Shown here: positions 14,088 through 60,324 of the stretch, piece by piece | Layout: each line of letters begins with the position of its first letter | Position numbering within the stretch: position 1 is the stretch's first letter | Source: Mobula hypostoma | Lineage: Eukaryota | Length of the DNA stretch: 64,000 nucleotides | Reading direction: 5' to 3' | Assembly: GCF_963921235.1 (NCBI RefSeq) | Contig: NC_086108.1 | Span: forward strand, 25,482,001-25,546,000 | Made by a program: the position numbers and the translations under genes | The notes under the pieces: model-generated | The model's input: only the letters and a program-made list of their open reading frames with translations | What the model was told of the DNA's origin: nothing | Databases searched by the model: none

Positions 14088-17000
14088 TAATTAATGGCAG
14101 ACCAATCAATTCGAAGAGAGAGATAACTTCACACGGGTCGGGGAGAAAAGTTTTAAAAAGGAGCGTTTTGCGGGGCTTAGCGCATTAGAATAGTGGGTAT
14201 GACTGCAAGGCCAATTTTCTGTTCTGGGAGTCAGATGGGGGATGTCTGGGAGACTTCCAACCTCCTTGATGGCCACATCTGCGCCAGGTGTATCGAGTTA
14301 CAGCTCCTCAGAGACCAAGTTAGGGAACTGGAGCTGCAACTCAATGACCTTGTTAGGGAGAGTGAAGAGGTGATCGACAGGAGCTACAGGCAGGTAGTCA
14401 ACCTGGGGCCACAGGAGACTGATAAGTGGGTGACCATCAGGAGAGGGAAGGGAGGGCGACAGGTAGTGAAGAGCACATCTGTGGTTGTCCCCCTTAACAA
14501 TAAGTACTCCATTTTGAGTGCTGTTGGGGGGGGGGGGGACCTACCTGAGAGAAGCAGCAGTGGCACTGTGTCTGGCCCTATGGCTCAGAAAGGTAGGGAA
14601 CGGAAGAGGATGGCAGTAGTGATAGGGGACTCTATATGTAGGGAGACAGATAGGCAATTCTGTGGACACGAAAAATAAACCCAAGTTCATGATGTTTCTG
14701 AGCGCGTCTACAATATCCTGAAATGGGAGGGTGAGCAGCTAGAGGTCTAGGTACATATTAGTACCAATGACATAGGTAGAAAAAGGGTGGAGGTCCTGAA
14801 AGAAGAATTCCGGGAGTTTGGAAGGAAGCTGAGACACAGGACCTCAAAGGTGGTAATCTTGGGATTGTTGCCTGTGCCATGCGACAGTGAGTATAGGAAT
14901 AGAATGAGGTGGAGGATAAATGCGTGGCTGAGGGATTGGAGCAGGGGGCAGGGATTCAGATTTTTGGATCATTGGGACCTCATCTGGGGCAGGTGTGACC
15001 TGTACAAAAAGGATGGGTTGCACTTGAATCTGGGGGGGGACCAATATCCTGGCGGAGAGGTTTGCTGAAGCTATTGGGGAGAACTTAAACTAGATTTGCA
15101 GGGGGGTGGGAACCGAAGTGAAGAGGCAGAGGATGGGGTGGTTGGCGCACAAATAGGGACAGCTTGTAGGGTGTTTGTGAGGAAGGATAGGCAGATGTTA
15201 CAGCAAAGATGCACTCAGCCTGATGGTTTGAGATGTGTCAATTTTAATGCAAGGAGTATCATAAACAAGAGCATAGATCAATATGTGGAACCGTGATGTT
15301 GTGGCCATTACATTGTGGATGACTCAGGAGTAGGAATGGCTGCTGAGTGCGCCAGGCTTTAGATGTTTCAAAAAGAACAGAGTGGGAGGCAAAAGAGGTG
15401 GGACTGTGGCATTGTTAATTAGGGATAGTGTCACGGCTGCAGAAAAGGAGGAAGTCATGCAGGGATTGTCTACTGATTCAGTGTGTGTGGAAGTCAGAAA
15501 AAGGAAAGCAGCAATAACTCTGCTGGGTGTTTTTTATAGACGTCCCAATAGTAACAGGGATGTCGAAGAGCATATAGAAAGGCAGATTCTGGAATGGTGC
15601 AATAATAATAGGGTTGTTGTAATGGGAGATTTTAACTTTCCTAATATTGACTGGCATGGGTGGAGCTTGTTATGTGTGTTCAGGAGGTTTTCTGTCACAA
15701 TATCCAGATAAGCCGACTAGAGCAGAGGCTGTACTTGATATGGTATTTGGAAATGAACCTCGTCAGGTGTCAAATCTCTCGGTGGGAGAGCATTTTGGAG
15801 GTAGTGACCACAAATCTACCTCCCTCACCGTTGCGCAGGAGAGGGATAGGAGCAGACAATCTGGGAAAACATTTAATTGGGGTAGGGGGAAATATGATGC
15901 TATTAGGCATGAACTTGGAAGCATGAATTGGGAGCAGATGTTCTCAGGGAACTGCACGGCAGTAATGTGGCATACATTCAGGGAACATTTGCATGGAGTT
16001 CTGCATAGATATGTTCCATTGAGGCAGGGAAAAGATGGTAGAGTTAAAGAACCATGGTGTACAAAGTATGTAAAAAATCTAGTTAAGAGGAAAAGAAAAG
16101 TTTATGAAAGGTTCAAGAAACTAGGTACTGTTGGAGCTCTGGAAAATTACAAGGTTACAAGGAATGATCTTAAGAATGGAATTAGAAGAGCCAGAAAGGG
16201 CCATGAGAAGGTCTTGGTGAGCAGGATTAAGGAAAACCCCAAGGCATTCTACAAGTACGTGAAGAGCAAGAGGATGAGTCATGTGAGAATAGGACCAATC
16301 AGGTGTGAAAGTGAAATGTGTGCATGGAGTCAGAGGAGGCAGCTGAGATACTTAATGAATACTTCGCTTCAGTATTCACTAGGTAAAAAGACCTTGGCAA
16401 TTGTGGGGAATGCTTACAGCAGACTGAAACGCTTGTGCATATAGATATCAAGAAAAAAGATGTGCTGGAGCTTTTGAAAAGCATTGAGTTAGATAAGTCA
16501 CTGGGACTGGATGATATATACCCCAGGCTACTGTGGGAAGTGAGGGAGGAGATTGCTAAGCCTCTTGCGATGATGTTTGCATCATCAATAGGGACAGGAG
16601 AAGTACCAGAGGATTGGAGGTTTGCAAGTGTTGTTCCCTTTTTCAAGAAAGGGAGTAGGGATAACCCGAGAAATTATAGACCAGTGAATTTGACTTCAGC
16701 AGTGGGCCAGTTGTTGAAGAAGATCCTGAAAGGCAGGATTTATGAGCACTTGGAGAGACATAATCTGATTAGGACTAGTCAGCATGGCTTTGTCAAGGGC
16801 AGGTCGTGCCATACAAGCCCGATTAAATTCTTTGAGAAAGTAACAAACACATTATTGGAGGTAGAGCAGTAGATGTAGTGTATATGGATTTCAGCAAGGC
16901 ATTTGATAAGGTACCCCATGGAATGCTTATGAGAAAGTAAGGAGGCATGGGATCCAAGGGGACCTTGCTTTGTGGATCCAGAACTGGCTTGCCCACAGAA

Positions 17001-35477: not shown

Positions 35478-38400
35478 TTAGATTAGATTAGATTAGATTC
35501 ATCTTTATTGTCATTGCGCTGAGTACAGATACAAAGCCAATAAAATGCAGTTAACATCTGACCAGAAATGCAAAGAATAGTGTTATTTACAAAATAACTG
35601 CAAATGAAAAGTAAGTGCTACAGCACACAAATATAAAAGTACTGAGACAGTACAATATTGGTGCAATACTGCTTAGCGCTGTGATGTAAGGTTCAGCAGG
35701 GTTACGGCCTGAGGGAAGAAGCTTTTCCTGTGCCTGCTGGTGCGGGAGCGGAGGCTCCTGTAGTGCCTACCAGATGGAAGGAGAGTAAAAAGTCCATGGT
35801 TAGGGTGAGATGCATTCTTGATAATGCTTTTCACCCTGCCCAGGCAGCGTTTATGGTAGATGTTCTCAATGGTGGGCAATTGGGTGCTGATAATCCGCTG
35901 GGCAGTTCTCACTACATGCTGGAGTGCTTTGCGGTCTAATATGAGACTATGCCATACCACACTGAGATGCAGTTGGTGAGTATGCTCGTATACTCTCAAT
36001 GGTACAGCGGTAAAAGTCTGTCAGTATCCTGGGACAGAGGTGAGCTTTCTTGATGCTCGGCAGGAAATAAAGGTGCTGTTGCGCCTTTTTGATCAGGATG
36101 GAGGAGTTCAGGGACCAGGTGAGATCCTCGGAAATGTGGACACCAAGGAATTTGAAGCTTGATACACGCTCCACTACAGCTCCTTTGATGTAGATGGGGA
36201 CGTGAGTGTGGCTCCTAGCATGCCTGAAGTCCACAACGATCTCCTTGGTCTTCTGGGTGTTAAGGGCCAGATTGCTGTCGGCACACCACGCGGCCAGATG
36301 CTGGACCTCATCCCTGTAGGCCGTCTCGTCATCCCCTCTGATCAGGCCAACCACCCTGGTGTCGACTGCAAACTTGATTATGGAGTTAGAACCATGTACA
36401 GGAACGCAGTCATAGCTGAAAAGGAATTACAGAAGAGGGCTCAGCACACAGCCTTGAGGCACGCCGGTGTTCAGGGTGAGAGTGGAGGAGGAGAGGTTGT
36501 CTATCTGAACTGATTGGGGTCTGTTGGTCAGAAAGTCCAAGGTCCAATTGCAGAGGGATGAACTGATACCAAGCCGGTGAAGTTTGACGATCAGCTTGGA
36601 GGGGATCACAATATTGAATGCCGAACAAAAGTCAATGAACAGCATTCTGATGTAAGAGTTGGGGCTGTCCAGGTGGGTCAGGGCAGAGTGAAGTGCTGTG
36701 GAGATGGCGTCCTCTGTTGACCTGTTGGTGCAATAGGCAAATTGATGGGGGTCCAGGGTAGTGGGCAGACAGGATTTCTGATGTGGTAGAACTAGTCTCT
36801 CAAAGCACTTTGCAATGATGGGGGTGAGGGCAACTGGGTGGAAATCATTCAGGCCCGTGGCAGTGGAATGCTTTGGCACTGGCACAATGGAGGTGATCTT
36901 GAAGCTTATGGGGACAACTACCTGGACCATGGACAGATTAAAATTGTCCATGAAGACCCCGGCCAACTGCCCTGCACAGATGCTGAGCACACAGCCAGGT
37001 ATTCCATCCAGACCAGCTGCCTTCTGTACATTCACCCTGCTCAGGGTGGCGCAAACATCGGAGGTGGAAAGTGAGAGAGACAGTTCACCAGGTGGGAGAT
37101 CCACTTTGAGGGTGACCTCCTTGTTCTCTCAGTCAAAGCGATCATAGAAGTAATTGAGCTCATCAGGGAGGAAAGCAGAGCTGGAAGCGGGCACAGTACT
37201 AGGTGGTTCGAAGTCTCTAATGACTGGTATGCCTTGCCACATGTGCTGGGCGTCTGAGGAGTTGAAATGCTCCTCGATTCTCTGTTTGTATATGTGTTTA
37301 GCCTGAGAGATTCCCCTCCTCAGGTTGGCCCTGGCTGAGCTGTAAGCCTCCCGGTCTCCAGACCTGAAGGCTGAATCTCTGGCTTTGAGCAGGAAGCGAA
37401 CTTCTCTGTTCATCCATGGTTTCTGATTGGGAAAACATTTATTTGTTTTTGTGATGTCACCCTATCTACACACTTGTTGATGTGCTCAAGGACAGAGTTG
37501 GTATATAAATAGATGTTAATCAGAGAGTCTGTGGTGGCACGGGCAGCAAACGCTCTCCAGTCTGTGTGCTGGAATTGGTGCTGAAGAGCAGAGTCAGCAC
37601 CCTCCAGCCAGATCTTAATAGTCTTCATTGTGGGTTTCACACGTTTAGTGACCCGGCTATACTTGGGAAACAGAAATACTGAAAGATGTTCAGACTGTCC
37701 CAGGTAGGGGAGGGTAGTGGTTTTGTAAGTGTCAGCCACATTTGTGTAGACATAATCGAAGGTTTTATTACCCCTTGTGGTGCATGATACATTTTGGTAA
37801 AATCTTGGAAGCACGGTACGTAGGTTACAATGATTAAAGTTCCCAACAACAATAAAGGCTCCGTCTGGATGAAATGTCTGCAGCTTGCTAATAGCGGCAC
37901 TGAGGTCTTTCATGGCTACTTTAGCGTTAGCATCCGGTGGAACATAAACTGTGACAGTAATGATGCTTGTAAACTCTCGAGATTGGTAAAAAGGTCTACA
38001 CTTAATAATTAGGTATTCCAGATCAGCAGAGCAATAAGTGTCAGCAATAGTAGAGTTAGTGAACCATGATTGATTCACGTAGATGCATAAACCACCTCCC
38101 CTACTTTTACCTGTCGCTTTTGCAGCTCTGTCAGCTCTGAAGACCCTGCGCCCTTCCAGTTCCACCACGTTGTTTGGGACATCACTGTTTAGCCACGTCT
38201 CCATAGAAATACATGATGTTGCAACCTTTAAGCCTTCTTTGTATAAGGGTCCAAGTCCTTAGTTCGTCCAGCTTGGTCATCAGAGACCGAACATTGGCGA
38301 GGAAGATGCTAGGTAGCGCTGGATGGTGTGGATTTAGCCTTAGTTTAGCATGCAAACCTCCACGCTTCCCCCATCTTTGTTTACGGTCTCGGCACCGGGC

Positions 38401-38668
38401 CCTTCTGGTTGGAGCGAGTTGAATGCAGGTCCGCGGTGCCCTTACTAACTCTGGAGGTAGTTGGTCGAAGTTGAATGGATAGTCTAAAACTGTGTTGGTG
38501 CATTGATAGTTAATATCCAAAAGTGACTGTTTGCTGTAAGTGTAATTCGCATAGCCGAATCGAGCGAACATGCAGGAATCAGCAGATAAATTAACACTAT
38601 TTTTCGAAATCTGGTAAGACACTGAGCCTCGCGATACACATGAGCCACCGCCATCTCCAGGTGTATTC
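35478..38668 (-). mobile_element. Full-length (about 3.2 kb) frameshifted Rex1/Babar LINE
   Basis: KRGG...LPSIFLANVRSL, APE motifs (ETWL, GGGLCIYV, VYVPP), and RT (PVALT, HQFAY, RMLFIDF, PQG; FADD mutated to FAVD). It has a (TCTAA)n tail and sits cleanly inside a CR1. Confidence 0.9.
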
Positions 38669-39535
38669 GGAGTATTGTGAGCAGTTTCGGGCCCCATATG
38701 TATGAAAGTATGTGCTGCAATTGAGAAGAGTGATAAGTGAATGTCTTGCTTCAAGTAAAACATACGTAAGTTATCTCTTGGTTCTGTGCTTCTGCTTTCA
38801 ATTTTTTTTTGTTTTAGAGTTACAAAGCATAACTTGAGATGACTATATACTTCTTGAAGTGCAGCGAGAAGTTCGAGTTAAAAAAATTACAGTAAAATAT
38901 CTGAATTTTAAAAAAACGCAGAGGGATGGTCAGGTTTCGAAAAAAAGTGCAGATCATAATCTTTTCTTTGGAACACCACATTTATTTGCAAAAGGAAAAA
39001 TGATTGAGTTTAAAGAAAAGGCAGAAAGCGGACAAATTCATTGGTTCATAAACAGTGAGTATGGGTGATAATAGTCATGTTTTAAAAAAAAAGCAGAAAT
39101 AGCTGGCTACATTGGAAAAAGAGCAGATGGTGTAGTCGCATTCAATTCCACAAAAGCTAACTGGCTACTGAATACTGAATGACTTGAGCAGTATTTTGAA
39201 GAAATAGACAATGAGAAGTAAATGCCATTTTTGCTGTTCACATTCAATTTAAAGGCATACAGTTTGCTTAGAAGATTAACTGCTCCAACCAAACCAGCCA
39301 AAATGTGGATACCATGAAATAATGCAGGAACATTTAGAACTGAAACATTGTTGGTTACAGAACGCTTTAGGTTTCAAAAGTGGAATCAAAAGTCCATTCA
39401 GTGTATGTGGCTGAATCGAAGAGATCGTCTGAACATTGTCAGTTCAGTGATGGGCTTAATAATGCACTGCAAGATCACTTAGCTTGTGGAATCTTACAAG
39501 AAAACATTAAAAAACAGCTCCTAACTGAAGCATAA

Positions 39536-39893: not shown

Positions 39894-40981
39894 CATTTAA
39901 AAGAGCAGTTAAAATAGCTGTATCAATGGAAACAGAAGACAGAGACACAATTCTGTTGCAATCGGGAATGAAAGTGAGCATGAATAAAATTGCAACATCT
40001 GAACAGAAACCTGCTTGGCAGAACAAATTCTGTTATTGTAGTACCAGGGGCTCACATACATCAGACCAATGCAGATTTAAAGGCGAAACTTGCAGAAAAT
40101 GCAACAAATTAGGACACATGCAAAGTGAATGTGGGGCAGAAAAAAATAAATGGACTGCATTGGGAAGAGAAAAAGATAAAAAGTTAAATTGCACTTTCAA
40201 AAAGAGTAGTGGTTTGCTTGCTGTTGATGAAAAACCTTACAGTGATGAGAGTGACACAGGACTGAGTAGCCTTAGATTTACAATGTGAAAACTAACAATA
40301 GACAAGCCATATAGCTTAAACCAGAAGTGAACAGCAAATTAATTAAAATGAAATTGGACATCGGCTCAGCTGTTTCAGTCATTCCACAAAATTAGTTTCA
40401 ACAACATTTCAAATATGCTGAACTGAAGCCTGCAACTATCAAACTAAAGTATATGTACTGGAGAAAAGGTAACTTCTGTAGGAATGACATTCATAACAGT
40501 GAAGTCACATTGATATTATATTTGATAAAAAAACAGGAGGACCAGCATTGTGGAGACATGATTAGATGAGACAACTACAACTTGATTAGAGATCCATCCA
40601 CAACTTGCATGCCACACCCTGTGCAATAGAGTCTGCTGAAAGTGAATTAAGAAAGGCACTGGATGATGCCACAGCAGTGTTCAAGAATGGCACTGGAAAT
40701 CTCAGACATATGAAAGGTAAAATAGTGTTAATGGAAATTCTACGCCCAAGTTATGGAAAGCCCTTCTGCTTTCTTATACAATCTGTGATGAAGTTGCCAG
40801 TGGGCTAGATCAAATGGAATGTGAAGGAATTCGTTCCAAGTTTGAGTGAACCCAATGGTCAATGCCAGTTGTCCCAGTAGCCAAGAAGAATGGGTCTATC
40901 AGCATCTGTGATGACTTAAGGTTATGTCAACCCATACAGAAAGTAGATCAATACCCTCTGCCCAGGATAGAGAGTATCTTT

Positions 40982-41822
40982 TGTTACGAGAATACACATA
41001 AAATTAAGATGTTTGCTGGCCTGGGCTAGCATCAGTGGCATCAGCAGTTGGTCTGCCACCTGCCCTCAGGGGAAGGAGAGATAAGGAACAATGGAGCAGC
41101 GTCTGGAGATGTGTAATGAAGGGATGTGGGAGGAAGAGCTGTCTGGAGCGGCTCCCCCCTTTGAACCCTGAACTGTTTGAAGTGATGGACAGGCGATACC
41201 CCAGCAGGGGGATAAAAAGGGACAGGTTCGCTAAGACAGACACACACGCCACCCGAGGTAACGAGACCCTGGAAGCGGTGCGCTTCTCACGAGTGGTGAG
41301 AAGAACCGGACAACGCACAGGGTGGAAAGGTACGATCAGCGGGAACCCGGTGTGTGTCCGCCCTTGCCTGGGTGCCGGGTTCACTGCAGAGGATCGACCG
41401 CATCTGGAGGAGGGGTCACAGTCGGTGACCTCAGGTGACATCACCAAGGACCCGCCCAAATGCTGTTTGTGAGCCATCTCGCTGGTCTGTGAGTGAAGCT
41501 GTGCTGAATGATGAGTTGTTCCTATTCTATGTCTCTCTTCCCCACCTTGTCCATCGCCATGGCAACGATTACTGCGAACTGAACTTTGAGTCATTTTGAA
41601 TTTGGTCATTTAACCCCTAGACAACGATAGAGCTTGATTGATGCTGTTATCTTAATGCTGTGCACATGTGTGTTTATCATCACTGAACTGTTGCATTTAT
41701 TACCCTTTCGATTACTATGTTGCTTGTTTCTTTAATAAAACTTTCTTAGTTCTAGTACTCCAGACTCCAACTGAGTGATCCATTTCTGCTGGTTTGGCAA
41801 CCCAGTTACGGGGTACGTAACA
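40982..41822 (+). repeat. 5' LTR (841 bp)
   Basis: Direct repeat of 44913-45752, with GATAAAA near 41211 and AATAAA near 41734. Confidence 0.97.
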
Positions 41823-41826
41823 TAAG

Positions 41827-41844
41827 TGGGGGCTCGTCCGGGAT
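41827..41844 (+). promoter_or_regulatory. Primer-binding site complementary to tRNA-Pro
   Basis: TGGGGGCTCGTCCGGGAT, the same 18-mer as the MLV PBS-Pro, located 4 nt after the LTR. Confidence 0.92.
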
Positions 41845-41920
41845 TTTGAACGCTAAATTTGGGACGGAGTAAATTGATTGGGTTAAAATTCCCGAAAGAA
41901 AGAAAAGACAAACAGCAGAA

Positions 41921-44740
41921 ATGGAGGTTGAGGAATTTATAAAGGCGCCGACCTTGGAGGCATTAGAGGATGCCAGGAAATCGGAATTGATAGCTGTGGC
42001 AAAACGGGTGAATCTTGCTAAGGTGAAGTCGACAATGAGGAGAGAGGAGATACACAGAGCTATTGTAGAGCACTATGTATCTAAAGGTGTGTTTCCCCAA
42101 GGTGAGCTGGGGGAGGTGTCTATTGAAAAACCTGCTGGAGACGCGGTACAGGTACAGCTTGAAAAACTGAGACTCGAGCACGAGTTCCGGGTACGGCAGT
42201 TAGAAAGGCAGGAGAAAGAGAGAGAGTTAGAAAGGCAAGAGAGAGAAAGACAGTTGGAGAGAGAAGAGAGAGAGAGGGACAGACAGTTGGAGAGAGAGGA
42301 GAAACAGAGGGAAAGGGAATTTGAGCTGGAGAAGTTAAAGATAAGGGCCGAGCAGGGGCTCGTGCCGAACCAAGGTGGAGGGTTCCGGGCGACCCAGGAG
42401 GTTAGGCTGGTTCCCCCATTTGACGATACCGATGTGGATCGGTACTTTCTCCACTTCGAAAAAGTAGCTATAAGTCAGGAATGGCCGAGGGATAAGTGGG
42501 TTGTCTTACTTCAGAGTGTACTGAAAGGGAAAGCCCAACAAGCTTACTCCGCTTTATCCCCGGAAGATGCCCAGAAGTATGAGGTGGTGAAGGAGGCCAT
42601 CCTCAGGACTTATGAGTTGGTCCCGGAGGCATACCGGCAGAGGTTCCGGAATGCGAGGAAGCGGTGGGACCGCACGTATTTGGAGTTTGCTCGCGAGATG
42701 CAAACATATTGTGAGCGTTGGTGCGCCTCGAAAGGGGTAGAGGGGGATTATGACAGACTGCTGCAGCTGATTCTGATTGAGCAGTTTAAAGGTTGTGTCC
42801 CTGAGGGTATGAGACCCTACCTCGATGAGAAAGAGGCAGCCACGTTAGCCGCAACTGCTAAGTTAGCGGATGAGTATGCGTTGACGCATAAAATGAAGTT
42901 TGCCCCGAGTAAAGGCTACCAGAAGGGTAGTCAGGACGGCGGGGAGAGTCCACCGGAAAAGTCAGAAAGTAAGCCGGGGACTAGTGAAAAGGATAAGGTA
43001 GACCGGGAGCAGTCTGGTAGGAAGTCTCCTGGAGTCGTCTGTTATAATTGTGGGAAAGTCGGACACTTTGCGTCCAGGTGCTTTGCCCCAAGGAAGGAGA
43101 CGGGGAAAGGAAAAGCGGAAATTTTGAATGGCTGTATTGAGCTGTTAAGCGAACCGCTAGGGAAGGACAGGTCTGAAAAAGTCCAGGAAGGGCGCGAGAG
43201 GTTTATCTCGGCCGGACTGGTGTCAGTGAAGGAGAGGTTAAAACCAGTTCCAGTGCGGATCTGGAGAGACACGGGAGCGTGTCAGTCACTAATACTGAAG
43301 AGTGTATTAGAGTTTAGCTCAGAGACCCAGACTGGGGAGGTAGAGGTCAAAGGTGTTGGGGAAGGGACAGAGTCAGTCCCTTTGCACCAGATACATTTAC
43401 AGAGCAACCTGGTCTCTGGACTAGTCACGATCGGGGTGAGGTCCGAATTACCGATGAAAGACGTGGAAGTCTTGCTCGGTAATGACATCGCCGGAGGAAT
43501 CGTGTTCCCAGTCGTGAGATTGACGGGTCAGCCTGCCAGCATGGAGGCCCCGCCCGCGATGGTGAATTTGGCTGAAACATTTCTGCCAACCTTGTATGAG
43601 ACAGGGTGTAGTGAGATAAGTGGTAGTGAGGGAGCTGGGACGGACGTAGCAGTAGCCAGGAAAGAATTTGTGCAGACGCAGGAGCGAGACGAGGGGCTGA
43701 TGGTTTTGGCAGAGACCGCTCTCTCTGACACAGCCTTGACAAGCTATTGTGCGGATGAGGAAGTGCTAAGGAAGAAAGGGAAATCAAGTACAGCATCCGC
43801 AGATGAGGAGTGGGGGGTGGTGCAAAAGAGTTATGGGGATGAGGTTTTTAACATGGCCCACGAGGTACCCCCCGGTGGACATTTTGCGGTGCTGGAGGAA
43901 ACAGTTGGTGGAACCATGAAAGAGAGTTACCGGCTGCCCAGGGGGAAAAATGTTATTGATCATGACCGACGCGAACTGAGACGGTCACCGGCTTTTGATA
44001 TGCTAACAAACCTAGTCGGTGTTAGCGTGGAAATCAATGAAGCTAGGGGCCCCTTGCTAAGAGGAAAAAACCATTTTGAAAAGATTAGGATGGGATCGGT
44101 CAGATGGGAGAAGGCTATTGTTTTGGCCAGGTCTACTGATAAGGTCTCTCCCTTAATCCCCGAAGGAGTAATTAAACGACTCGCACCCATGTGTTTGATT
44201 GTCCCGAGGAAATGCAAAGAACTGGGACGTTGGGTGATTGTGGTTACAATAGGGCGGCCAAGCAAACAACACCCATATTTTTTGAGTAATTCAGTGACTA
44301 AAGGGCTGATGAACACAGAGGTGTGTATTGGCAATTTAACACGGCTGTCTGAAGCCAGCTTGATAGTGAACCTTAGAGAAAATGAATTCGGCCACGCGAA
44401 TGTCACTTACCTGGGAATTGTGGTGACACAGGGGCAGCTGGCAGTGATGCAAGCTACAGTGCAGGCTATCGCTGACCTCCCAACCCCGACAGACAAGAGG
44501 GCCCTCAGAAGGCTTTTGGAGATGGTGGGGTACTGCAGGAAGTTTTGCAATAACTCTGCGGTCAATACCCGTCCCCCTCCTACTAAGCCCTTGCGAGGGA
44601 AAATTGAGTCGGAATGGGACGACCCTTGTTGTTGTGGTCCGGGACAAAACCAAATGAGAGGTTACATTGGTCGCAATTCATCAGTGTTTTTGGCCACTAT
44701 GAAGTTTGCTGAGTTGGAGCCTGGTCTAAGGAGTTATTAA
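41921..44740 (+). CDS. Gag-protease polyprotein with vestigial IN-RT-RNase H remnants (939 aa)
   Basis: E/R coiled coil, capsid with a SCAN-like CTD (YRQRFR...LILIEQF), CCHC knuckle CYNCGKVGHFASRC, protease RDTGA...LLGND, then AHEVPPGGH (IN), KQHPY, and an RT thumb YLG...GYCRKF. Confidence 0.92.
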   Translation: MEVEEFIKAPTLEALEDARKSELIAVAKRVNLAKVKSTMRREEIHRAIVEHYVSKGVFPQGELGEVSIEKPAGDAVQVQLEKLRLEHEFRVRQLERQEKERELERQERERQLEREERERDRQLEREEKQREREFELEKLKIRAEQGLVPNQGGGFRATQEVRLVPPFDDTDVDRYFLHFEKVAISQEWPRDKWVVLLQSVLKGKAQQAYSALSPEDAQKYEVVKEAILRTYELVPEAYRQRFRNARKRWDRTYLEFAREMQTYCERWCASKGVEGDYDRLLQLILIEQFKGCVPEGMRPYLDEKEAATLAATAKLADEYALTHKMKFAPSKGYQKGSQDGGESPPEKSESKPGTSEKDKVDREQSGRKSPGVVCYNCGKVGHFASRCFAPRKETGKGKAEILNGCIELLSEPLGKDRSEKVQEGRERFISAGLVSVKERLKPVPVRIWRDTGACQSLILKSVLEFSSETQTGEVEVKGVGEGTESVPLHQIHLQSNLVSGLVTIGVRSELPMKDVEVLLGNDIAGGIVFPVVRLTGQPASMEAPPAMVNLAETFLPTLYETGCSEISGSEGAGTDVAVARKEFVQTQERDEGLMVLAETALSDTALTSYCADEEVLRKKGKSSTASADEEWGVVQKSYGDEVFNMAHEVPPGGHFAVLEETVGGTMKESYRLPRGKNVIDHDRRELRRSPAFDMLTNLVGVSVEINEARGPLLRGKNHFEKIRMGSVRWEKAIVLARSTDKVSPLIPEGVIKRLAPMCLIVPRKCKELGRWVIVVTIGRPSKQHPYFLSNSVTKGLMNTEVCIGNLTRLSEASLIVNLRENEFGHANVTYLGIVVTQGQLAVMQATVQAIADLPTPTDKRALRRLLEMVGYCRKFCNNSAVNTRPPPTKPLRGKIESEWDDPCCCGPGQNQMRGYIGRNSSVFLATMKFAELEPGLRSY

Positions 44741-44900
44741 TAACACGTGTAAAAGGAACAGAAAATGTGATGACTGTCTGTCAAGGTGTTGACAGCTTCA
44801 AATTCTCTGTATTAGCTAAATAACTGTTAAAGATGTATATTGTGTATGTATCAGACAATGTAGTCATGTTTGTAATTTTTACCTCCCGGTAAAAATCCTT

Positions 44901-44912
44901 AAAGGGGGGAAG
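44901..44912 (+). promoter_or_regulatory. Polypurine tract
   Basis: AAAGGGGGGAAG directly abuts the 3' LTR. Confidence 0.9.
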
Positions 44913-45752
44913 TGTTACGAGAATACACATAAAATTAAGATGTTTGCTGGCCTGGGCTAGCATCAGTGGCATCAGCAGTTGGTCTGCCACCTGCCCTCAG
45001 GGGAAGGAGAGATAAGAACAATGGAGCAGCGTCTGGAGATGTGTAATGAAGGGATGTGGGAGGAAGAGCTGTCTGGAGCGGCTCCCCCCTTTGAACCCTG
45101 AACTGTTTGAAGTGATGGACAGGCGATACCCCAGCAGGGGGATAAAAAGGGACAGGTTCGCTAAGACAGACACACACGCCACCCGAGGTAACGAGACCCT
45201 GGAAGCGGTGCGCTTCTCACGAGTGGTGAGAAGAACCGGACAACGCACAGGGTGGAAAGGTACGATCAGCGGGAACCCGGTGTGTGTCCGCCCTTGCCTG
45301 GGTGCCGGGTTCACTGCAGAGGATCGACCGCATCTGGAGGAGGGGTCACAGTCGGTGACCTCAGGTGACATCACCAAGGACCCGCCCAAATGCTGTTTGT
45401 GAGCCATCTCGCTGGTCTGTGAGTGAAGCTGTGCTGAATGATGAGTTGTTCCTATTCTATGTCTCTCTTCCCCACCTTGTCCATCGCCATGGCAACGATT
45501 ACTGCGAACTGAACTTTGAGTCATTTTGAATTTGGTCATTTAACCCCTAGACAACGATAGAGCTTGATTGATGCTGTTATCTTAATGCTGTGCACATGTG
45601 TGTTTATCATCACTGAACTGTTGCATTTATTACCCTTTCGATTACTATGTTGCTTGTTTCTTTAATAAAACTTTCTTAGTTCTAGTACTCCAGACTCCAA
45701 CTGAGTGATCCATTTCTGCTGGTTTGGCAACCCAGTTACGGGGTACGTAACA
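44913..45752 (+). repeat. 3' LTR (840 bp)
   Basis: Same as the 5' LTR by eye, except for one G (ataaggaaca vs ataagaaca). Confidence 0.97.
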
Positions 45753-47858
45753 CTTTGCAAAACTTTCTGGAGGAAAACATTTCAGCAAAGTGGATTTAGC
45801 AGAGGCCTACCTATGGGTGGAGATGGAAGAACAGTCCAAAGTGTTTCTCGCCATAAACACTCACAAAGGGCTTTATTGCCATAATAGGCTTGTTTTTGGA
45901 GTAGCATCTGCACCTACACTCTGGCAGAAAGTTAGGGACCAGGTGCTGCAAGGCCTCCCAGGCACTCAGTGTTAACTGGATGACATCATTATCACCGGTA
46001 AGGGTGAGAAGGAACATCTCCAAAATCATAAGACGGTGTTAAAATGATTAGAAGATTATAGGCTGAGAGAAAGATGCAAAAAGTGTGAATTATTTAAAAC
46101 AAACATCACTTACCATTGATGCACAACAATTATACAAGTGTGCTGAGAAAATTCAAACAGTGATGGATGCCCTAAGGCTAAAGGATGTGTCACAGTTGCC
46201 GTCCTTTTTAGGATCTGCCAATTGCTATAACTAGTTCCTATCAAACCTGGCTATTGTGCTCCATCCTTTGAACACAGGAAGAAATGGCAATGGACAAAGC
46301 AGTGTGAGGTAGCTTTCCAAAAGGCAAAAGTAATGGTGACGTCAAACACTGTACTTACAAATTATGATCCATATCATCCAGTGAAGCTAGCTTGTGATGC
46401 CTCACCTTATGGTATAGGTGCAGTTATATTATGAGTGATGGAAGCAAAAGCCCCCTTACCTTTGTATCACATTCTCTTACAGCTGCAGAGAAAAGGTATG
46501 TATAGATTGACAGAGAGGCCTTGAGTCTGATTTGGGGTGTAAAATGTTTCAAACGATATTTCCATGGGAGTGAGTTTACCCTCATTACTAATCATCAACC
46601 ACTCGTGTCTATCTTCAGTCTCTAGATGGGTGTTCCACTACCAGCTGAAGCATGAAAGCAGAAATAGGTTCTATTTTTTACAGGACACAATTACAAGATC
46701 AAATTCAAGAAGATGACTAATCATGGAAATGCTGATGGAGTGTCCCATTTACCCTTGCAAAAGGAAATACCCAAAAAATTCACAGAAGTGGACACTCCTC
46801 TTGACGTATTCTCCCTAATACAAATTGAATGTCTCCCAATTACGGTAGAGATGATCTAAAGGGAAACCAGGAAAAGATCCCACACTGTCTCTGGTCTGCA
46901 TGGAAAACCAAAATGGCTGGAGTGTGCAGCAGGAATTCCAGTTCCCTCATTTCTACAAGTGCCAGGATGATTTTGCCTTTGGCGGGGGTTGACTTATGTG
47001 GAGATTGGGGGTCATTGTACCATTCAAGCTGAGAGCTAAGGTGTTGGAGGAACTACATGCCAGTCATCTAGGCATAGTCAAAATGAAAACTTTGGCTCTA
47101 TCCTTTATCTAGTGGCCTGGGATAGATCAGTATCAGTATCAGATTGAAAAGCTTGCCATGCACTGATTGAGATAGCAACATGTCCAGAAGATGCCAAGAG
47201 ACGTGCCTCTCCATCCCTGGCAATGGACTGCATTGCCCTGACAGAGGATTCATGTGGGTTTTGCCTGACCACTCCTGGGCATAAATTTCTTGGTGGTAGT
47301 GGATGCATCTACAAAGTGGCCAGAAGTGTTCCCAGTAGTCTCTACTATAGCCTTGCACACTGTTGATACATTGAGATCAGTTAGTCAGTGACAGTGGACC
47401 ACAGTTTGTTGTGGAACAGTTTCAGGCATTCCTGAAAGTGAATGGAATAAGAAATATTACATCTGTTCTGTACTATTCAGCTACAAATGCCTTGGTGGCA
47501 AGGTTGGTGCAGAGTCTAAAGAAAGCCACACGAACAATGTCAGCAGAACACAATACACTGACACTGAATCAGAAGCTCACCAATTTCTTCCTTGTATATC
47601 ACAGTGCAGTACACACCACAACCAACAGCTCACCAGCTATTCTGTTCCAGTTGTCCCCTGCATTTACGCTTGGATCTCCTCAAACTAAACCTCAGAAGGA
47701 TTATGCAGGAAAACAGCTGAGACAAATTAAGGGCTCCTCAAACAAAGAAGTTCAATATTTCACACCTGGACAAGCAGTCCTGGTGAGGGACTACAGAGGT
47801 GGTCAAAAGTGGGTACTCAGGAAGATTAAGGACAGAACTGGACCACTCTCCTACACAT

Positions 47859-47879
47859 TATATATATAATGCGCGCGTG

Positions 47880-53017: not shown

Positions 53018-53119
53018 TGGCGTTCACCAGCAACTTTGATGTGTGTTGCTTGAATTTCCAGCATCTGCGAATTCCTGTTGTTTGCATTTAAATTCACTAC
53101 TGCGAAGTCTCTTCCGGTG

Positions 53120-56100
53120 ATGCCTGCACCGAAGAAGTTTAGATCCTCTCTTCGACGGGAGTTCAGTGAAACCATCTCTCACTGCTCCCCATCTGTAATT
53201 TCTTCGGCTCTTCAACTTTTCAACCACACTTTGACTCAGACTCGCTATCACAGCCATATACCCTTTCTTGGAACGTGCTTCCGTCGCCAACTTACTCCAG
53301 TTGGCTTTAGGATTCGTTTCCAAGCCTCTCAATTTGGACCTTCTGAGGATCCCAGGTACTCACATTTTATTGACTCTGCCTCTCGCCGCTTCTCCTGTCA
53401 AGCTCTGAAGGCGACTCTCTCCGCCATGAGGAGGTACTTGGTGAACCTATCCCAGACCCTTCCACACCTTCGGGACACTTTCTTCGCCGTCTGTAATGGT
53501 CCTACCCGTTATTTCATCCTTCGTCGGATTCACGCCTGCAATCGCCGTTTTTTTGACTTTGTCATGTTAGGCAAAGATCGCAAGATCCTACATCTACGGA
53601 CTCCAGAGCCTGCCGGCCCCGACGCTAGCAGGCATGAACTTCACATTGCGGCCCCTGCCATTGATCTCGGCGGCTCCAACACCTCAGGGCATATTCAAAA
53701 CCCGGACTCCAGCAACGACCATGGACACCTTCACAGCGATTGCGCAACCACCAACTGTGACGCCAGCCTTGAACTCCAGGCCAGATCTTTATGTGCTGCT
53801 GTTGTGACTCCCGTCTCCCCTTCCCCCACCACCACTCCGCAGCCCCGCCTTCCTCAGATCCCACCGTCAACTCCTGGGCCCTCAGAGGCTCCATCTTCCT
53901 CTCACCCCAACCCTCCCCTCTCCACTGACACCCCCAGCCTCCCCCCTCTCCCCTCTGATCCCAGCTCTCATCCGTGCCAGGTCTTTACCATCCCCTCCGA
54001 CCTTCAACTGTCGGAGGCAGAACGCTCTGTTCTCGGTAAGGGCCTCACCTTTGTCCCCCTTCGCCCATGCCTCAGCGAGTTCCATGTTCGCCATGATGCG
54101 GAACTTTTCTTCCGCCGTCTCCGTCTCCGAGCCTACTTCTTCGGCAAGGACTCTTCCACCCCCACCGATGACCCCTTCTCCCGTCTTCAACCCTCCTCTT
54201 CTTCATGGACACGACGCTCTGGTCTTCTGCCTGCTCTGGATCTCTTTATTGCTAACTGCCGACGGGATATCAACCGTCTCAACTTCACCGCACCTTGTCC
54301 CCATTCCAACCTCACTCCTTCCGAACGCTCTGCTCTCCACTCCCTCCGCACTAATCCTAACATTATTAAACCCGCCGATAAGGGGGGTGCTGTTGTAGTC
54401 TGGCGTACTGACCTCTACCTTGCCGAGGCACAGTGACAACTCGCGGATACCTCCTCTTATTTACCCCTCGATCGTGACCCCACTAAGGAGCACCAGGCCA
54501 TAATCTCCCACACCATCACCGACTTTATCCGCTCAGGGGATCTCCCATCCACTGCTACCAACCTTATAGTTCCCACACCTCGCACTTCCCGTTTCTACCT
54601 CCTACCCAAGATCCACAAACCTGCCTGTCCTGGCCGACCTATTGTCTCAGCTTGCTCCTGCCCCACCAAACTCATTTCTGCATACCTCGACACTGTTTTA
54701 TCACCCCTTGTTCAATCCCTTCCGACCTATGTTCGTGACACTTCTCACGCTCTTAAACTTTTCGATGATTTTAAGTTCCCTGGCCCACACCGCTTTATTT
54801 TACACCATGGATGTCCAGTCCTTATATACTTCCATCCCCCATCAGGAAGGTCTCAAAGATCTACGCTTCTTTTTGGATTCCAGACCTAATCAGTTCCCCT
54901 CTACTACCACTCTGCTCCGTCTAGCGGAATTAGTCCTTACTCTTAATAATTTCTCCTTTTGCTCCTCCCACTTCCTCCAAACTAAAGGTGTAGCTATGGG
55001 CATCTGTATGGGTCCCAGCTATGCCTGCCTTTTTGTTGGGTTTGTGGAACAATCTATGTTCCGTGCCTATTCTGGTATCTGTCCCCCACTTTTCCTTTGC
55101 TACATCGACGACTGCAATGGCGCTGCTTCCTGCATGCATGCAGAACTCGTTGACTTTATTAACTTTGCCTCTAACTTTCACCCTGCCCTCAAGTTTACCT
55201 GGTCCATTTCCGACACCTCCTTCCCCTTTCTAGATCTTTCTGTCTCTGTCTCTGGAGACAGCTTATCCACTGATGTCTACTATAAGCCTACTGACTCTCA
55301 CAGCTATCAGGACTATTCCTTTTCTCACCCTGTCTCTTGCAAAAATGCCATCCCCTTCTCGCAATTCCTCCGTCTCCGCCGCATCTGCTGTCAGGATGAA
55401 GCTTTTCATTCTAGGACGAGGGAGATGTCTTCCTTTTTTAAAGAAAGGGGCTTCCCTTCCTCCACTATCAACTCTGCTCTTAAACGCATCTCTCCCATTT
55501 CACGTACATCTGCTCTCACTCCATCCTCCCACCACCCCACTAGGAATAGGGTTCCCCTGGTCCTCACCTACCACCCCACCAGCCTCCGGGTCCAACATAT
55601 TATTCTCTGTAACTTCCGCCACCTCCAACGGGATCCCACCACTAAGCACATCTTTCCCTCGTCCCCTCTCTCTGCATTCCGCAGGGATCGCTCCCTACAC
55701 AACTCCCTTGTCCATTCATCTCCCCCATCCCTCCCCACTGATCTCCCTCCTGACACTTATCCGTGTAAGTGGAACAAGTGCTACACATGCCCTTACACTT
55801 CCTCCCTTACCACCATTCAGGGCTCCAAACAGTCCTTCCAGGTGAGGCAACACTTCACCTGTGAGTCGACTGGGGTGATATACTGCGTCCGGTGCTCCCG
55901 ATGTGGCCTTTTATATATTGGCGAGACCCGACGCAGACTGGGAGACCGCTTTGCTGAACATCTACGCTCTGTCTGCCAGAGAAAGCAGGATCTCCCAGTA
56001 GCCACGCATTTTAATTCCACATCTCATTCCCATTCTGACATGTCTATCCACGGCCTCCTCTACTGTAAAGATGAAGCCACACTCAGGTTGGAGGAACAAC

Positions 56101-56168
56101 ACCTTATATTCCGTCTGGGTAGCCTCCAACCTGATGGCATGAACATCGACTTCTCTAACTTCCGCTAA
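53120..56168 (+). pseudogene. Penelope RT-GIY-YIG ORF with a premature stop (54434-54436) and a frameshift near 54800
   Basis: IKPADKGG, FYLLPKIHK, PGRPIVS, MDVQSLYTSIP, GVAMG, YIDD, FLD, VIYCVRCSRCGLLYIGET, RFAEH, LEEQHLI...GMN. Confidence 0.9.
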
Positions 56169-56461
56169 GGCCCCACCTCCCCCTCACACCCCATCCGTTA
56201 TTTATTTTTATGCACACATTCTTTCGCTCACTCTCCTTTTTCTCCCTCTGTCCCTCTGAATATACCTCTTGCCCATCCTCTGGGTCCCCCCCCCCTTGTC
56301 TTTCTTCCCGGACCTCCTGTCCCATGATCCTCTCGTATCCCCTTTTGCCTATCACCTGTCCAGCTCTTGGCTCTATCCCTCCCCCTCCTGTCTTCTCCTA
56401 TCATTTTGGATCTCCCCCTCCCCCTCCAACTTTCAAATCCCTTACTCACTCTTCCTTCAGT

Positions 56462-56499
56462 TAGTCCTGACGAAGGGTCTCGGCCTGAAACGTCGACTG
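56462..56499 (+). ncRNA. Minimal type I hammerhead ribozyme motif
   Basis: UAGUC-CUGACGA-AGGGUCUCGGCCU-GAAAC-GUC/GACUG. Stem I is UAGUC:GACUG, stem III is the palindrome ACGU, and predicted cleavage is after 56494. Confidence 0.75.
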
Positions 56500-56598
56500 C
56501 ACCTCTTCCTACAGATGCTGCTTGGCCTGCTGCGTTCACCAGCAACTTTGATGTGTGTTGCTTGAATTTCCAGCATCTGCAGAATTCCTGTTGTTTGC

Positions 56599-57555
56599 CT
56601 TTAGTAATCTTATATGTTTCAATAAGATCCCTTCTAAATTCCAGAGTATACAAGCCCAGTCCCTCCAATCTTTCAAGATATGACAGTCCCGCCATCCTGG
56701 GAATTAACCTTGTGAACCTACGTTGCACTCCCTCAATAGTAAGAATGTCCTTCCTCAAATTTGGAGACCAAAACTGCACACAGTACTCCAGGTGTGGTCT
56801 CACCAGGGCCCTGTACAGCTGCAGAAGAAGCTCTTTGCTCTTATACTCAATTCCCCTTGTCATGAAGGCCAGCATGCCATTAGCTTTCTTCACTGCCTGC
56901 TGTACTTGCATGCTTGCTTTCAGTGACTGATGTACAAGAACACCTAGATCTCGTTGTACTTCCCCTTTTCCTAACTTGACTCCATTTAGATAATAATCTG
57001 CCTTCCTGTTCTTACCACCAAAGTGGATAACCTTATATTTATCCACATTAAACTGCATCTGCCATGCACCTGCCCACTCACCCAGCCTGTCCAAGTCACC
57101 CTGCATTCTCATAACATCCTCCTCACATTTCACACTGCCACCCAGCTCTGTGTCATCGGCAAATTTGCTAATGTTACTTTTAATTCCCTCATCTAAATCA
57201 TTAATATATATTGTAAACAACTGCGGTCCCAGCACTGAACCCTGCAGTACCCAACTGGTTACCGCCTGCCATTCCAAAAGGGAGCCGTTAATCGCTACTC
57301 TTTGTTTTCTGTCAGCCAGCCAATTTTCAATCCACGTCAGTACTCTGCCCCCAATACCATGTGCCCTAATTTTGCCCACTAATCTCCTATGTGGGACTTT
57401 ATCAAAGGCTTTCTGAAAGTCCGGGTACACTACATCCATTTGCTCTCCCTTGGGTACATCCTCAAGAAATTCCAGAAGATTAGTCAAGCACGATTTCCCC
57501 TTCGTAAATCCATGCTGACTCAGACCGATCCTGTTACTGCTATCCAGATGTGTTA
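56599..57555 (-). mobile_element. 5'-truncated CR1 RT segment (upstream half of the split CR1)
   Basis: SQHGFTKGKSC, DFQKAFD, QGSVLGP, KFADDT and LEYCVQFW. The frame continues at 53017 once the Penelope element is removed. Confidence 0.9.
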
Positions 57556-60324
57556 ACCTGTGAGGGTTAATCGGTGGTTGCAGAGCGGCATGGTTCAAAG
57601 GGCTGGAAGAGCTGTAGCTCAATAAATAAAATAAATGCTTTAATGCACAATATTCTGAAGACACAATAGACTGCAGATGTTGGGATATGCAGCAAAAATA
57701 CAAGCTGCAGGAGAAATTCAGCCGGTTAGGGAGCAACAGTGGGAGGAAATGGACAGCAAACATGTTAATGAAGTCCAAAGGTGTGGGCGGGTTGTCTAAT
57801 GAGTAAAGGTAAGATAAAAGACACTGGTCTGATAGAGCGATGGTTTAACTGAGGTGATGTTTCCTCTTGTGGGAGAACCCCTGGTTCACTATTTAAAAAT
57901 AAGGGTTCACCACTTAAGGTAGAGATGAGATAATACGTTTTCTTTCTGTGTAATGAGTCTTCTGAACTCTATCTCAGTTCAGATTACAAGACTGATAGTT
58001 GGACTTTTTATTTAGTATGTATTTATTTATCGAGAAAACAGCATGGAATAGATCTTTCTGGCCTTTTGAGCTGCATTGCCCAGCAACTCTCGATTTAACA
58101 TTAGACTAATCACAGGACAATTTACTGTAACCAATTAGCTTACTGTGGGCAATTCGTCCATGAAGAAAGTTTGGGCAAACTAGATGTATTGCTGGAGTTC
58201 TGAAGACTGAGAAGTAACTTGATTCAAAAATCTAAGATCCTCGGTGGACTTCATAGGGCATATGTAGAAGGGATATTTTGTCTTGGGAAGGATCTAGAAC
58301 TCAGCCTCACAGTTTAAAAATAACGTATTGAAAATAAAAAAAAAATGCAGGAATTTTAAAATAAAAATGGAAATGCTGGATACACTCAGCAGGTCAGGCC
58401 ATATCTACGGGAAGAGAAATAGGGTTAACATTTCAGGTTGAAGATCCTTTGTCAGAACGGGTCATCCTCAATGGTGTCTCTTTGCCTTAAAAAAGTGGAG
58501 ATACCTAATCAAGATAAATGTGAGTTAGAATTTTATTCTCTCACCATGTCCTGAATCTTTGAGATTCCTTTCTTCAAAGAACGGGCATTTAAATATATTT
58601 AAGACAGAAGTAAATAGAGTTGTGATCAGCAAAGCAGTAGAAGTTATTATGGTTAGAAGGGAATATGAATTTGAGGTAGCGTTCACATCAGCTGAGAATC
58701 TATTGAATGGTGGAGCAGGCTCCTGTACTCAGTGGCCTACTGCTGCTTGTACTAATTCATGTTACTTTGAATGCTATATGAAATAACTCAGCCAAGCATG
58801 TTTATGAGATGAAATTAGGATACCTCATCTACAAACTCCTTTCTCTTTTGCATAGAATATGCTGGGAATGCAAAGTGATGTCTAAAGGTGTGTATTACAT
58901 GTTTAAGAAATAGAAACAGGAGTGGGCTCTTCATCCTTTCTCTGCCATTCTATGTAACAGAGACAATCTTATATTACAAAGTCACCTTTGTGTGTCTTCT
59001 GATTCATTTAAAACTGTTGATCTTTGCCTTGAATGCATAATATGACCAAACCATTCTTTCAAGTACAAAAATCCAAAGATTCACCACCTTCTAGGTGAAG
59101 AGAATTGTTTTCCTCATCTCTACGTTGAATGACTAGCATTGTAATTTGAGACTGTAACTCTTGATTCAAGACATCCAATCCAAGGTGAAAGATAACCCTG
59201 CATCTCTGCTGTCACATTGCTTAAGAACTTTTGATGAGATCTTCTCTGATTCATCAAATCTCAGTCAGCTTCATCTGTCCAGATAAATCCCAGCTTGATG
59301 AAGCTTGATATTGAGAATTTGGCGAAGGTTCACTTAGGTAAACCTTTCTGTAACTAGGGAAACCAAACTTCTAGGCAATATTACAAATATGGTTTCACCT
59401 GTATAAATAGAGCATGGTGTCTCACCTTTTCACCTGAAATCTTGCAATAAAGGTAGTGAGAGAGAGCAGTTGCCTCTCTCACTACCTGCTGTACCTGCAA
59501 GTTACCTTCTAGTAATCTGTGTGTCAGAACACCCTGATTAATACAATCTTTGGGATTCTACATCACAGAGGAAGGTGCTGTTCAGTCACATGGTGCCTGT
59601 AAGCGAAAGGTCAATATATTTTTCAATATTAAAAGAACTAAAGGATTTAAGCTGAGTACATAGCTTATGGTGTCGAGGTGCTTTCCTGGTCTTTTCTATG
59701 TATAAGGACAAAGAGCTGCTGGAACAAATTTTGAAGTGTTCAACCCTTGCCCATTATTGCCTACCTGCACTGTACTTTCTCCCTAAGTGTTACTGCAATA
59801 ATATATTCTGCATTTTGTTTTTTTTTTATCCCTTCATACTATCTTGATGTACATACAGTTCTGTGTAAAAATGTCTTCGGCATATATACATTTACAGCTA
59901 GGGAGCCTATGACTTCTGCACAGTACTTCATTTGTCAATGTGGAGAGCGAGTTTATAAATCTGGCAGGAACAAAGGGTGCTGGAAATGGGGAAGATAGAG
60001 TGCCGCAGGAGCGGTATGGGACAGGTGGCAGAGAAGGAGTGTCAGAGGTGGGGGTGTCGTGGGTGCAGACACATCCAGCCCTGAGTCACCAGGCAAGGTA
60101 ACTTGATTCTGAACATTTGGTTTATTGATCATTACAGAATGTCTCTCTGATGCTTCCCACTCCCTCCCCTTTCCCAACGATGATTCCCCTCTCCCTGCCC
60201 CCTTCCTACTCCCAGTCCACAATAGAGACCCATATAGGAATCACATTTATCATCACTCACATATATCATGAAATTTGTTTTTTTTTTTTGCGGCAGCAGT
60301 ACAGTGTAATATATAGAATTACTG

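Follow-up and report, generated by a model that had tools for sequence, protein, structure and literature searches.

An Open Frame Kept without Its Protein Sequence in the Hollowed-Out Pol Tail of a Gmr1-like Retrotransposon of Mobula hypostoma

The Element and Its Single Open Frame

The locus studied here is a very young copy of a Gmr1-like long terminal repeat (LTR) retrotransposon, at positions 40982-45752 of a 64,000-nt stretch of the Mobula hypostoma genome (the window, to which all coordinates refer; the features of the element lie on the + strand). Its 5′ LTR (40982-41822, 841 nt, TG...CA ends, TATA-like motif at 41211) and its 3′ LTR (44913-45752, 840 nt, AATAAA at 45664) show zero substitutions between them and a single 1-nt indel, and the copy is flanked by the target-site duplication CTTT (40978-40981 on the left, 45753-45756 on the right), in agreement with a preliminary description of this DNA, which had called it a young LTR element. 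The primer binding site (PBS, 41827-41844) is a perfect complement of the 3′ end of tRNA-Pro, the minority form within the family, and complements tRNA-Pro genes of the same genome. With the polypurine tract at 44901-44912, the terminal and priming signals of a Gmr1-like element are all present.

The interior holds one stop-free frame (41921-44740) of 939 aa. It opens with gag (41921-43100), which comprises an N-terminal domain, an E/R-rich repeat, a capsid with a SCAN domain (42623-42892), and a zinc knuckle (43037-43081), and which is exchanged with a full-length partner described below. The aspartic protease follows (43101-43555, DTG at 43268); it is under purifying selection and begins the cassette of the short lineage. 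Behind it lies a hollow tail of about 380 codons of pol remnants. The first piece (43556-43996) contains the linker between protease and integrase and an integrase zinc-finger remnant, with its His pair kept and its Cys pair lost, after which the whole integrase core and C-terminal domain are gone; the second (43997-44287) is the linker between integrase and reverse transcriptase (RT) up to KQHPY, after which 128 aa of RT are missing; the third (44288-44629) combines an RT palm remnant, substituted at its YIDD site, with the thumb, behind which 88 aa covering the connection and the start of RNase H are gone; and the fourth (44630-44740) is an RNase H scrap with a family-wide terminal frameshift after 44704 and a stop at 44738-44740. 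An untranslated relic of the RNase H end (44741-44900) leads up to the polypurine tract.

Pfam matches in the 939-aa frame are SCAN (PF02023, E 1.5e-12) and zf-CCHC. A Pfam search of the tail gave no match, and thus none of the intact RT or integrase cores that the preliminary description had named as evidence contrary to its own reading; the intact integrase DDE, RT YxDD, and RNase H centers of an autonomous Gmr1-like element are absent. The order of protease, integrase, RT, and RNase H is nevertheless that of such elements, as the remnants are colinear with the partner and the Pfam order is the same in relatives; the SCAN capsid and this order bear out the Gmr1-like origin proposed earlier, and the frame is similar to SCAN-integrase-RT polyproteins, the nearest named proteins carrying the label Mobula hypostoma. 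A single-sequence AlphaFold2 model of the tail (mean pLDDT 32.7) is uninformative either way. We note that the E/R-rich gag repeat (42150-42345) varies in length among copies, and that all 16 of its 16 indels common to at least three copies are in frame.

Family Size and Sampling

Searching the same genome with the tail gave 2,333 first-look candidates, and the 40 that were scored were all at or above 99%. For sampling blind to the tail, we used the junction of LTR and PBS, for which there were 394 exact matches to form 1 and 1,321 to form 2, and assembled 100 copies from 60 of the first 61 listed form-1 matches (one tandem neighbor being skipped) and the first 40 form-2 matches. The window's integrase-deletion junction is spanned by 95 of these 100 copies, two are of the full type, and the probe places the other three in neither class; among those is L164, the oldest short form. 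LTR-LTR divergence across 92 copies has a median of 0.7% and a maximum of 5.8%, and 4-nt target duplications occur in 78 of the 82 copies with both ends located, out of 100 examined. The deletions are thus common to copies that each have their own flanks and target duplication, which places the amplification after the loss of the enzymes. A domesticated host gene was also considered and rejected, on account of more than 1,700 LTR-PBS junctions rather than a single locus, and of a neutral tail without residue-level conservation.

The two PBS forms (41823-41850) differ in that the 394 junctions carry the perfect tRNA-Pro complement and the 1,321 have two mismatched places; both occur in short and full, and in young and old, copies. 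A variant tRNA fitting the majority form was sought, and 35 of 35 T-arm matches were of the standard form. The same two-PBS pattern is found in mouse ETn, MusD, and IAP, where the account in PMC7472051 ascribes it to tRNA-fragment escape. Elsewhere in the genome, L018-L020 (C18:110879559-110895960) form a tandem array of the short element with shared LTRs and 4-kb spacing. Two proteins that are or contain the element frame (P0002 and P0022) bear host gene names (MACC1, phosphatidylserine decarboxylase), through either misannotation or exon capture. Finally, a contig from another organism (organism B) crosses 43927-44134 ungapped, a hint of the short form in a second species.

The Full-Length Partner and the Deletions in the Tail

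Using the RT of an intact, unrelated polyprotein as query, we reached full-length copies in the same genome that have the same LTR ends, some of them with unbroken frames of 1,414-1,580 aa; all catalytic motifs are present in the one full-length copy examined. These copies are few, at about 12 places with at least 98% identity to an integrase-core probe, and they share with the short form the PBS, the LTR termini, and the regulatory half of the LTR, features by which partners are recognized in PMC11302176. A full-length family sharing the LTR ends, the kind of partner anticipated in the preliminary description, therefore exists in this genome.

Taking as the reference L113, a full-length copy of this genome whose frame is unbroken, the tail resolves into ordered Pol pieces in the Pol frame (L113 aa 582-735, 753-760, 1040-1141, 1270-1287, 1306-1400, and 1489-1511). 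Deletions of 21, 7, 4, 5, 17, 279, 6, 128, 18, and 88 aa, all in frame, account for the losses, and four insertions of 1-2 aa each are likewise in frame. The earlier view of ordered Pol fragments in one frame is borne out, and the deletions, which it had proposed to test for being multiples of three and shared, are in frame and shared rather than private. Some details of that view need correction. What had been taken as a jump over YIDD is a site that is retained but substituted to CIGN, with intermediate states in older copies, and a frameshift, of which none had been noticed, lies after aa 928, puts the last 11 residues out of frame, and brings the stop 37 partner codons early. KGTENV and CLSR do lie after the stop, as stated, but in two different frames. 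The three large in-frame deletions and the shifted end are already present in the old short copies L164 and L166; further small trims, again in frame, occur in younger short subfamilies. With its protease and 380 codons of pol remnants, the element is not one of the Gag-only non-autonomous elements (TR-GAG), which are without pol beyond gag. The comparison with L113 supports a non-autonomous lineage, which likely borrows integrase and RT from the rare full-length partner.

Selection on Residues and on Frame

Capsid and protease are under purifying selection, and the amino acids of the tail drift at a neutral rate. We aligned 89 short copies and the window (90 rows), dropping L077, seven copies of the second sample that fell outside the length filter, and the most diverged L155, L164, and L166; variants in at least three rows were counted as inherited, and variants in a single row (private) served as the neutral control. 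Relative to this control, the inherited ratio of nonsynonymous to synonymous changes (N/S) is 0.37 for gag-protease (p 5e-7) and 0.83 for the tail (p 0.34), the difference between the two having a p of 4e-4; by part, it is 0.30 for capsid, 0.32 for nucleocapsid, and 0.51 for protease, whose Asp is kept in 89 of 89 copies. A codon model (first 60 rows, singletons masked) gives an omega of 0.31 for gag-protease and 0.74 for the tail. Pairwise omega in the tail is 0.58-0.77 between short subfamilies, compared with 0.18-0.23 between full copies, and the changes found in the short lineage only (66 nonsynonymous, 27 synonymous) match the private control (284/121, p 0.90). The comparison of dN/dS between tail and Gag suggested at the outset thus separates them clearly, and the lineage does have its own capsid and protease under selection, as had been proposed.

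The frame of the tail is under selection, and its protein sequence is not. Seven of the ten tail indels found in at least three copies are in frame; the corresponding count for non-coding regions is 8 of 46 (p 0.002), and that for private tail indels is 9 of 33 (p 0.024); since the private tail indels are mostly frameshifts, there is no mechanistic bias toward in-frame changes. The three shared indels that are out of frame are 1 nt long, occur in 3-4 copies each, and are ungrouped on the tree, whereas the in-frame ones reach 45 copies. When the nine multi-copy tail breaks are placed on the tree, seven are fully recurrent, one has two origins among three carriers, and one joins a pair (support 80), and no tail break is found in more than four of the 89 copies. 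Since the split from the full form, 0.296 substitutions per site have accumulated, or about 296 substitutions, for which about 10.6 stops are expected and none is fixed (P 2.5e-5), and the chance of ten consecutive in-frame deletions is P 2e-6 to 2e-5. Selection keeping the tail open, a claim of the preliminary description, is upheld by both figures. The breaks that are widespread are late; the one present throughout the family falls 37 codons short of where the frame first ended. A stop at 43592 that had seemed to be inherited by three copies was rejected as an alignment artifact around an in-frame deletion.

Recombination between Short and Full Forms

The protease and tail form an old, separate cassette on the current LTR-gag backbone, and the LTR, gag, and 3′ end are freely swapped between short and full forms, an exchange that the preliminary description had not foreseen. 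Compared with young full-length copies, the window shows 93-100% identity as far as 43100 and again from 44750 onward, with 69-90% between these points; the 3′ relic from about 44750 is 97-99% like the partner, and the capsid is 98-99% identical between the two forms. Against old short copies, the step in identity at 43100 and 44750 is missing. When 17 short and 16 full copies are placed in trees (29 rows for the 3′ end with U3), the tail separates short from full with support of 100, whereas capsid-nucleocapsid (12 changes) and the 3′ end with U3 (10 changes) interleave them, a short-only clade being rejected for both (p-AU 5e-33 for capsid-nucleocapsid, 8e-4 for the 3′ end). It is this combination of interleaved outer trees and a separate tail tree that makes the protease and tail an old cassette.

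Template switching between co-packaged RNAs is a known route for such exchange, as reported in PMC6894440, and we infer that it operates here, in particles holding both RNAs, which would also explain access to the partner's enzymes. Recombination with the partner keeps the defective pol cassette going into each new LTR-gag generation. Two copies are reciprocal recombinants: L037 has a partner-type protease joined to a short tail, and L140 has a short-type start joined to a nearly full Pol.

An Independent Hollow Family

Relatives labeled as stingray carry Gag and protease followed by a different open filler of similar length, and searching the same genome with this filler led to family B (810 first-look candidates), which has other LTRs and other breakpoints. 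Its members (L191-L194, L197, L205-L207, and L211-L240) are without capsid, zinc knuckle, protease site, and integrase core, and in four loci chosen for long frames, these frames run for 817-1,110 codons and end near the 3′ LTR. Of the 33 rows analyzed, 29 were selected for DNA similarity; in this set, the frame is preserved by 12 of 15 shared indels, compared with 46 of 140 private ones (p 5e-4), and the dead gag-protease part drifts near neutrality (0.75, p 0.11). A frameshift shared by 7 of the 33 rows lies about 130 codons from the end. Family B is an independent hollow Gmr1-like family with the same frame-keeping signature.

Shorter relatives (L198, L200, and L209) consist of a dead gag-protease and an RNase H end; L200 and L209 have about 1.7 kb between their LTRs, and the 478-codon frame of L200 ends about 260 nt before the 3′ LTR. 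Six proteins (P0025, P0027, P0028, P0030, P0033, and P0035), five of them stingray-labeled, have Gag and protease followed by up to about 380 aa, an extra segment that resembles a decayed second gag-protease, not Pol.

Why the Frame Is Kept

Selection acts on the frame and not on the residues, breaks close to the end are tolerated, and in family B the frame persists although it yields no useful protein; taken together, these observations are most simply explained if ribosomes must travel as far as the 3′ end. We consider the chances somewhat better than even that the dead Pol tail is kept in frame because the RNA is spared from decay when ribosomes come close to its 3′ end, and this need would most likely reflect escape from nonsense-mediated decay (NMD), as suggested by where breaks are tolerated. 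Long 3′ untranslated regions trigger UPF1-dependent decay. In the single-frame partner, 120 nt separate the natural stop from the 3′ LTR, and in the short form 172 nt do; were translation to end behind the protease, 1,357 nt would remain. In the cycle that we envisage, the short copy would make Gag and protease and borrow integrase and RT from the full-length partner; short and full RNAs would share particles, where template switching would swap LTR, gag, and 3′ end; RNAs on which ribosomes come near the 3′ end would escape decay; and copies with early breaks would insert, or arise after insertion, but found no lineages. Of the reasons offered in the preliminary description, avoidance of NMD or a similar need for translation fits, and selection on the frame without the residues, with a tail N/S equal to that of the neutral control and a frame kept in family B in spite of its dead capsid and protease, disfavors a scaffold, decoy, or dominant-negative role, which would call for conserved residues, and favors translation to the end.

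Several observations weigh against this explanation. The RT palm-thumb block has a pairwise omega of 0.42-0.78 (17 nonsynonymous and 12 synonymous changes, p 0.21 compared with neutral), which leaves room for mild residue constraint there. Stops in at least three copies number 3 where 6.7 are expected, which is not significant alone (p 0.098), and one of the three is an alignment artifact. Across copies, breaks are more numerous in the tail (70) than in gag-protease (40); CGA codons (four in the tail, none in gag-protease) and homopolymer runs (nine and four) explain part of the excess, and weaker selection may lie behind the remainder. In family B, the RT-RNase H part carries a purifying signal (0.32, p 3e-8), possibly brought in by recombination, and six stop codons occur in 3-6 rows each, five of them at CGA sites. 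Lastly, the model gives no reason for the tail to have escaped outright deletion; a near-total deletion of the tail was found in one copy (L143) of the 100 sampled.

A different account, which we regard as unlikely but deserving of weight, is translation-coupled packaging in cis, whereby the RNA would be captured while it is translated to the end, or a long Gag-protease-tail product would favor its own RNA. The same population data would be expected, short copies do far outnumber full ones, and the gag-pol fusion of I-delta-1 works in cis according to PMC6466679. Family B, however, keeps its frame without a capsid to bind its RNA, and the Ty1 proteins, in what PMC3945221 reports, are without cis preference.

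We find it rather improbable that the peptide encoded by the tail serves a function itself, be it as a scaffold, decoy, or dominant-negative partner, for example through the RT thumb remnant. The thumb is the best-kept piece of the tail, at 74% aa identity to the partner and with the pairwise omega of its block given above, and the two residues of the His pair survive in 88 and in 91 of some 92 copies. Over the tail as a whole, however, N/S does not differ from neutral, the sequence has been eroded stepwise and trimmed repeatedly in frame, and the filler that the stingray relatives carry after Gag and protease is unrelated.

Still less probable, in our estimation, is a sequence-independent protein spacer needed for timing, folding, or filling, perhaps together with a role as an extra source of Gag and protease for a partner that makes Gag and Pol at 1:1. 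Such a supply role is compatible with the capsid shared with the partner and with the selection on the protease, and wheat Quinta has been proposed as a Gag supplier in PMC11302176; the frame of family B is kept, however, though its protease and capsid are dead, and the supply of Gag is compatible with the explanation through translation to the 3′ end and gives no reason for an open tail. Chance combined with a few master copies, or a mechanism that makes in-frame deletions, is very improbable and largely refuted, for although this finding was chosen for its open frame and the ladder-like tail tree points to few source lineages, the probabilities for stops and deletions given above are low, private tail indels are mostly frameshifts, and the pattern is repeated in the independent family B.

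Relation to Known Systems

In coronavirus defective RNAs, the frame is reportedly selected and the protein irrelevant, which is the same logic of a frame without a protein, in an RNA virus. Short and full pairs sharing flanks are also said to occur in soybean, as LTR swapping. In a literature search that covered few subscription journals and no repeat databases, neither the family nor selection on the frame alone in Gmr1 elements turned up. Gmr1-like Ty3/gypsy elements have a SCAN capsid, protease, integrase, and RT-RNase H in one frame, as described in bioRxiv 10.1101/2025.03.03.638093; the element studied here has the same capsid, domain order, and single frame, but its integrase core, RT fingers, and RNase H start are deleted, its remaining catalytic residues are substituted, and it forms a short and full pair sharing LTR and gag.

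The closest working parallel is mouse IAP I-delta-1, a non-autonomous element with an internally deleted gag-pol fusion frame, whose translation aids its mobilization in cis and which dominates new insertions, as reported in PMC6466679 and PMC7411935. Both are non-autonomous and have one gag-pol fusion frame, but I-delta-1 arose by one 1.9-kb deletion in a retrovirus-type element, whereas here at least ten successive deletions have accumulated over 0.3 substitutions per site, Gag and protease are intact, and neutrality at the residue level has been measured. Wheat RLG_Quinta, which in the account of PMC11302176 has an intact Gag and a domain whose function is unknown and shares its PBS and LTR ends with the autonomous RLG_Cereba, is likewise a non-autonomous partner sharing these signals and is the nearest parallel for the supply of Gag; its Gag has barely any DNA homology to that of its partner, whereas here gag is continually reimported, the protease has been retained, and the additional domain goes back to neutrally drifting remains of Pol. 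In the pairs bovine ERVK C/D, MusD/ETn, and KoRV/RecKoRV, which share flanks, the defective form is more numerous than its competent counterpart, exchanges a central segment, and recombines with it, according to PMC10924933 and PMC6894440. The takeover by a defective form is the same, but the bovine D-type is without intact frames, and here there is a full open frame.

It is conceivable, though we put it at somewhat less than an even chance, that ray Gmr1 elements repeatedly spawn parasites in which only an unbroken frame to the 3′ end is conserved, with at least two independent families, one of them without a working protein, and a stingray form that plugs the gap after Gag and protease with a dead gag copy. 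The thousands of dated copies would then amount to a mutagenesis screen for the distance from stop to 3′ end that passes germline surveillance, and the hollow cassette would be a selfish pol allele riding the current LTR-gag backbone at about 50:1 over the working allele. In this vertebrate retrotransposon, selection for being translated can be told apart from selection on the protein, with an internal neutral control and an independent replicate, and it offers a tractable system for studying how retroelement RNAs without introns get through decay pathways. A long open frame within a repeat need not encode anything of use; several such frames carry annotations as host proteins.

Surroundings of the Element

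The element has inserted into an older Ty3/gypsy element that is itself decayed, within the RT gene of the latter (40860-40981 and 45757-47870), and the interrupted RT frame resumes across the insertion. Further long frames in the window lie at 53054-56168 (+), 56228-57844 (-), 35947-38877 (-), and 14181-16872 (+); these presumably represent a Penelope-type RT that has a GIY-YIG end and sits inside a CR1-type LINE, a LINE of Rex1/L2 type, and a second CR1-type LINE.

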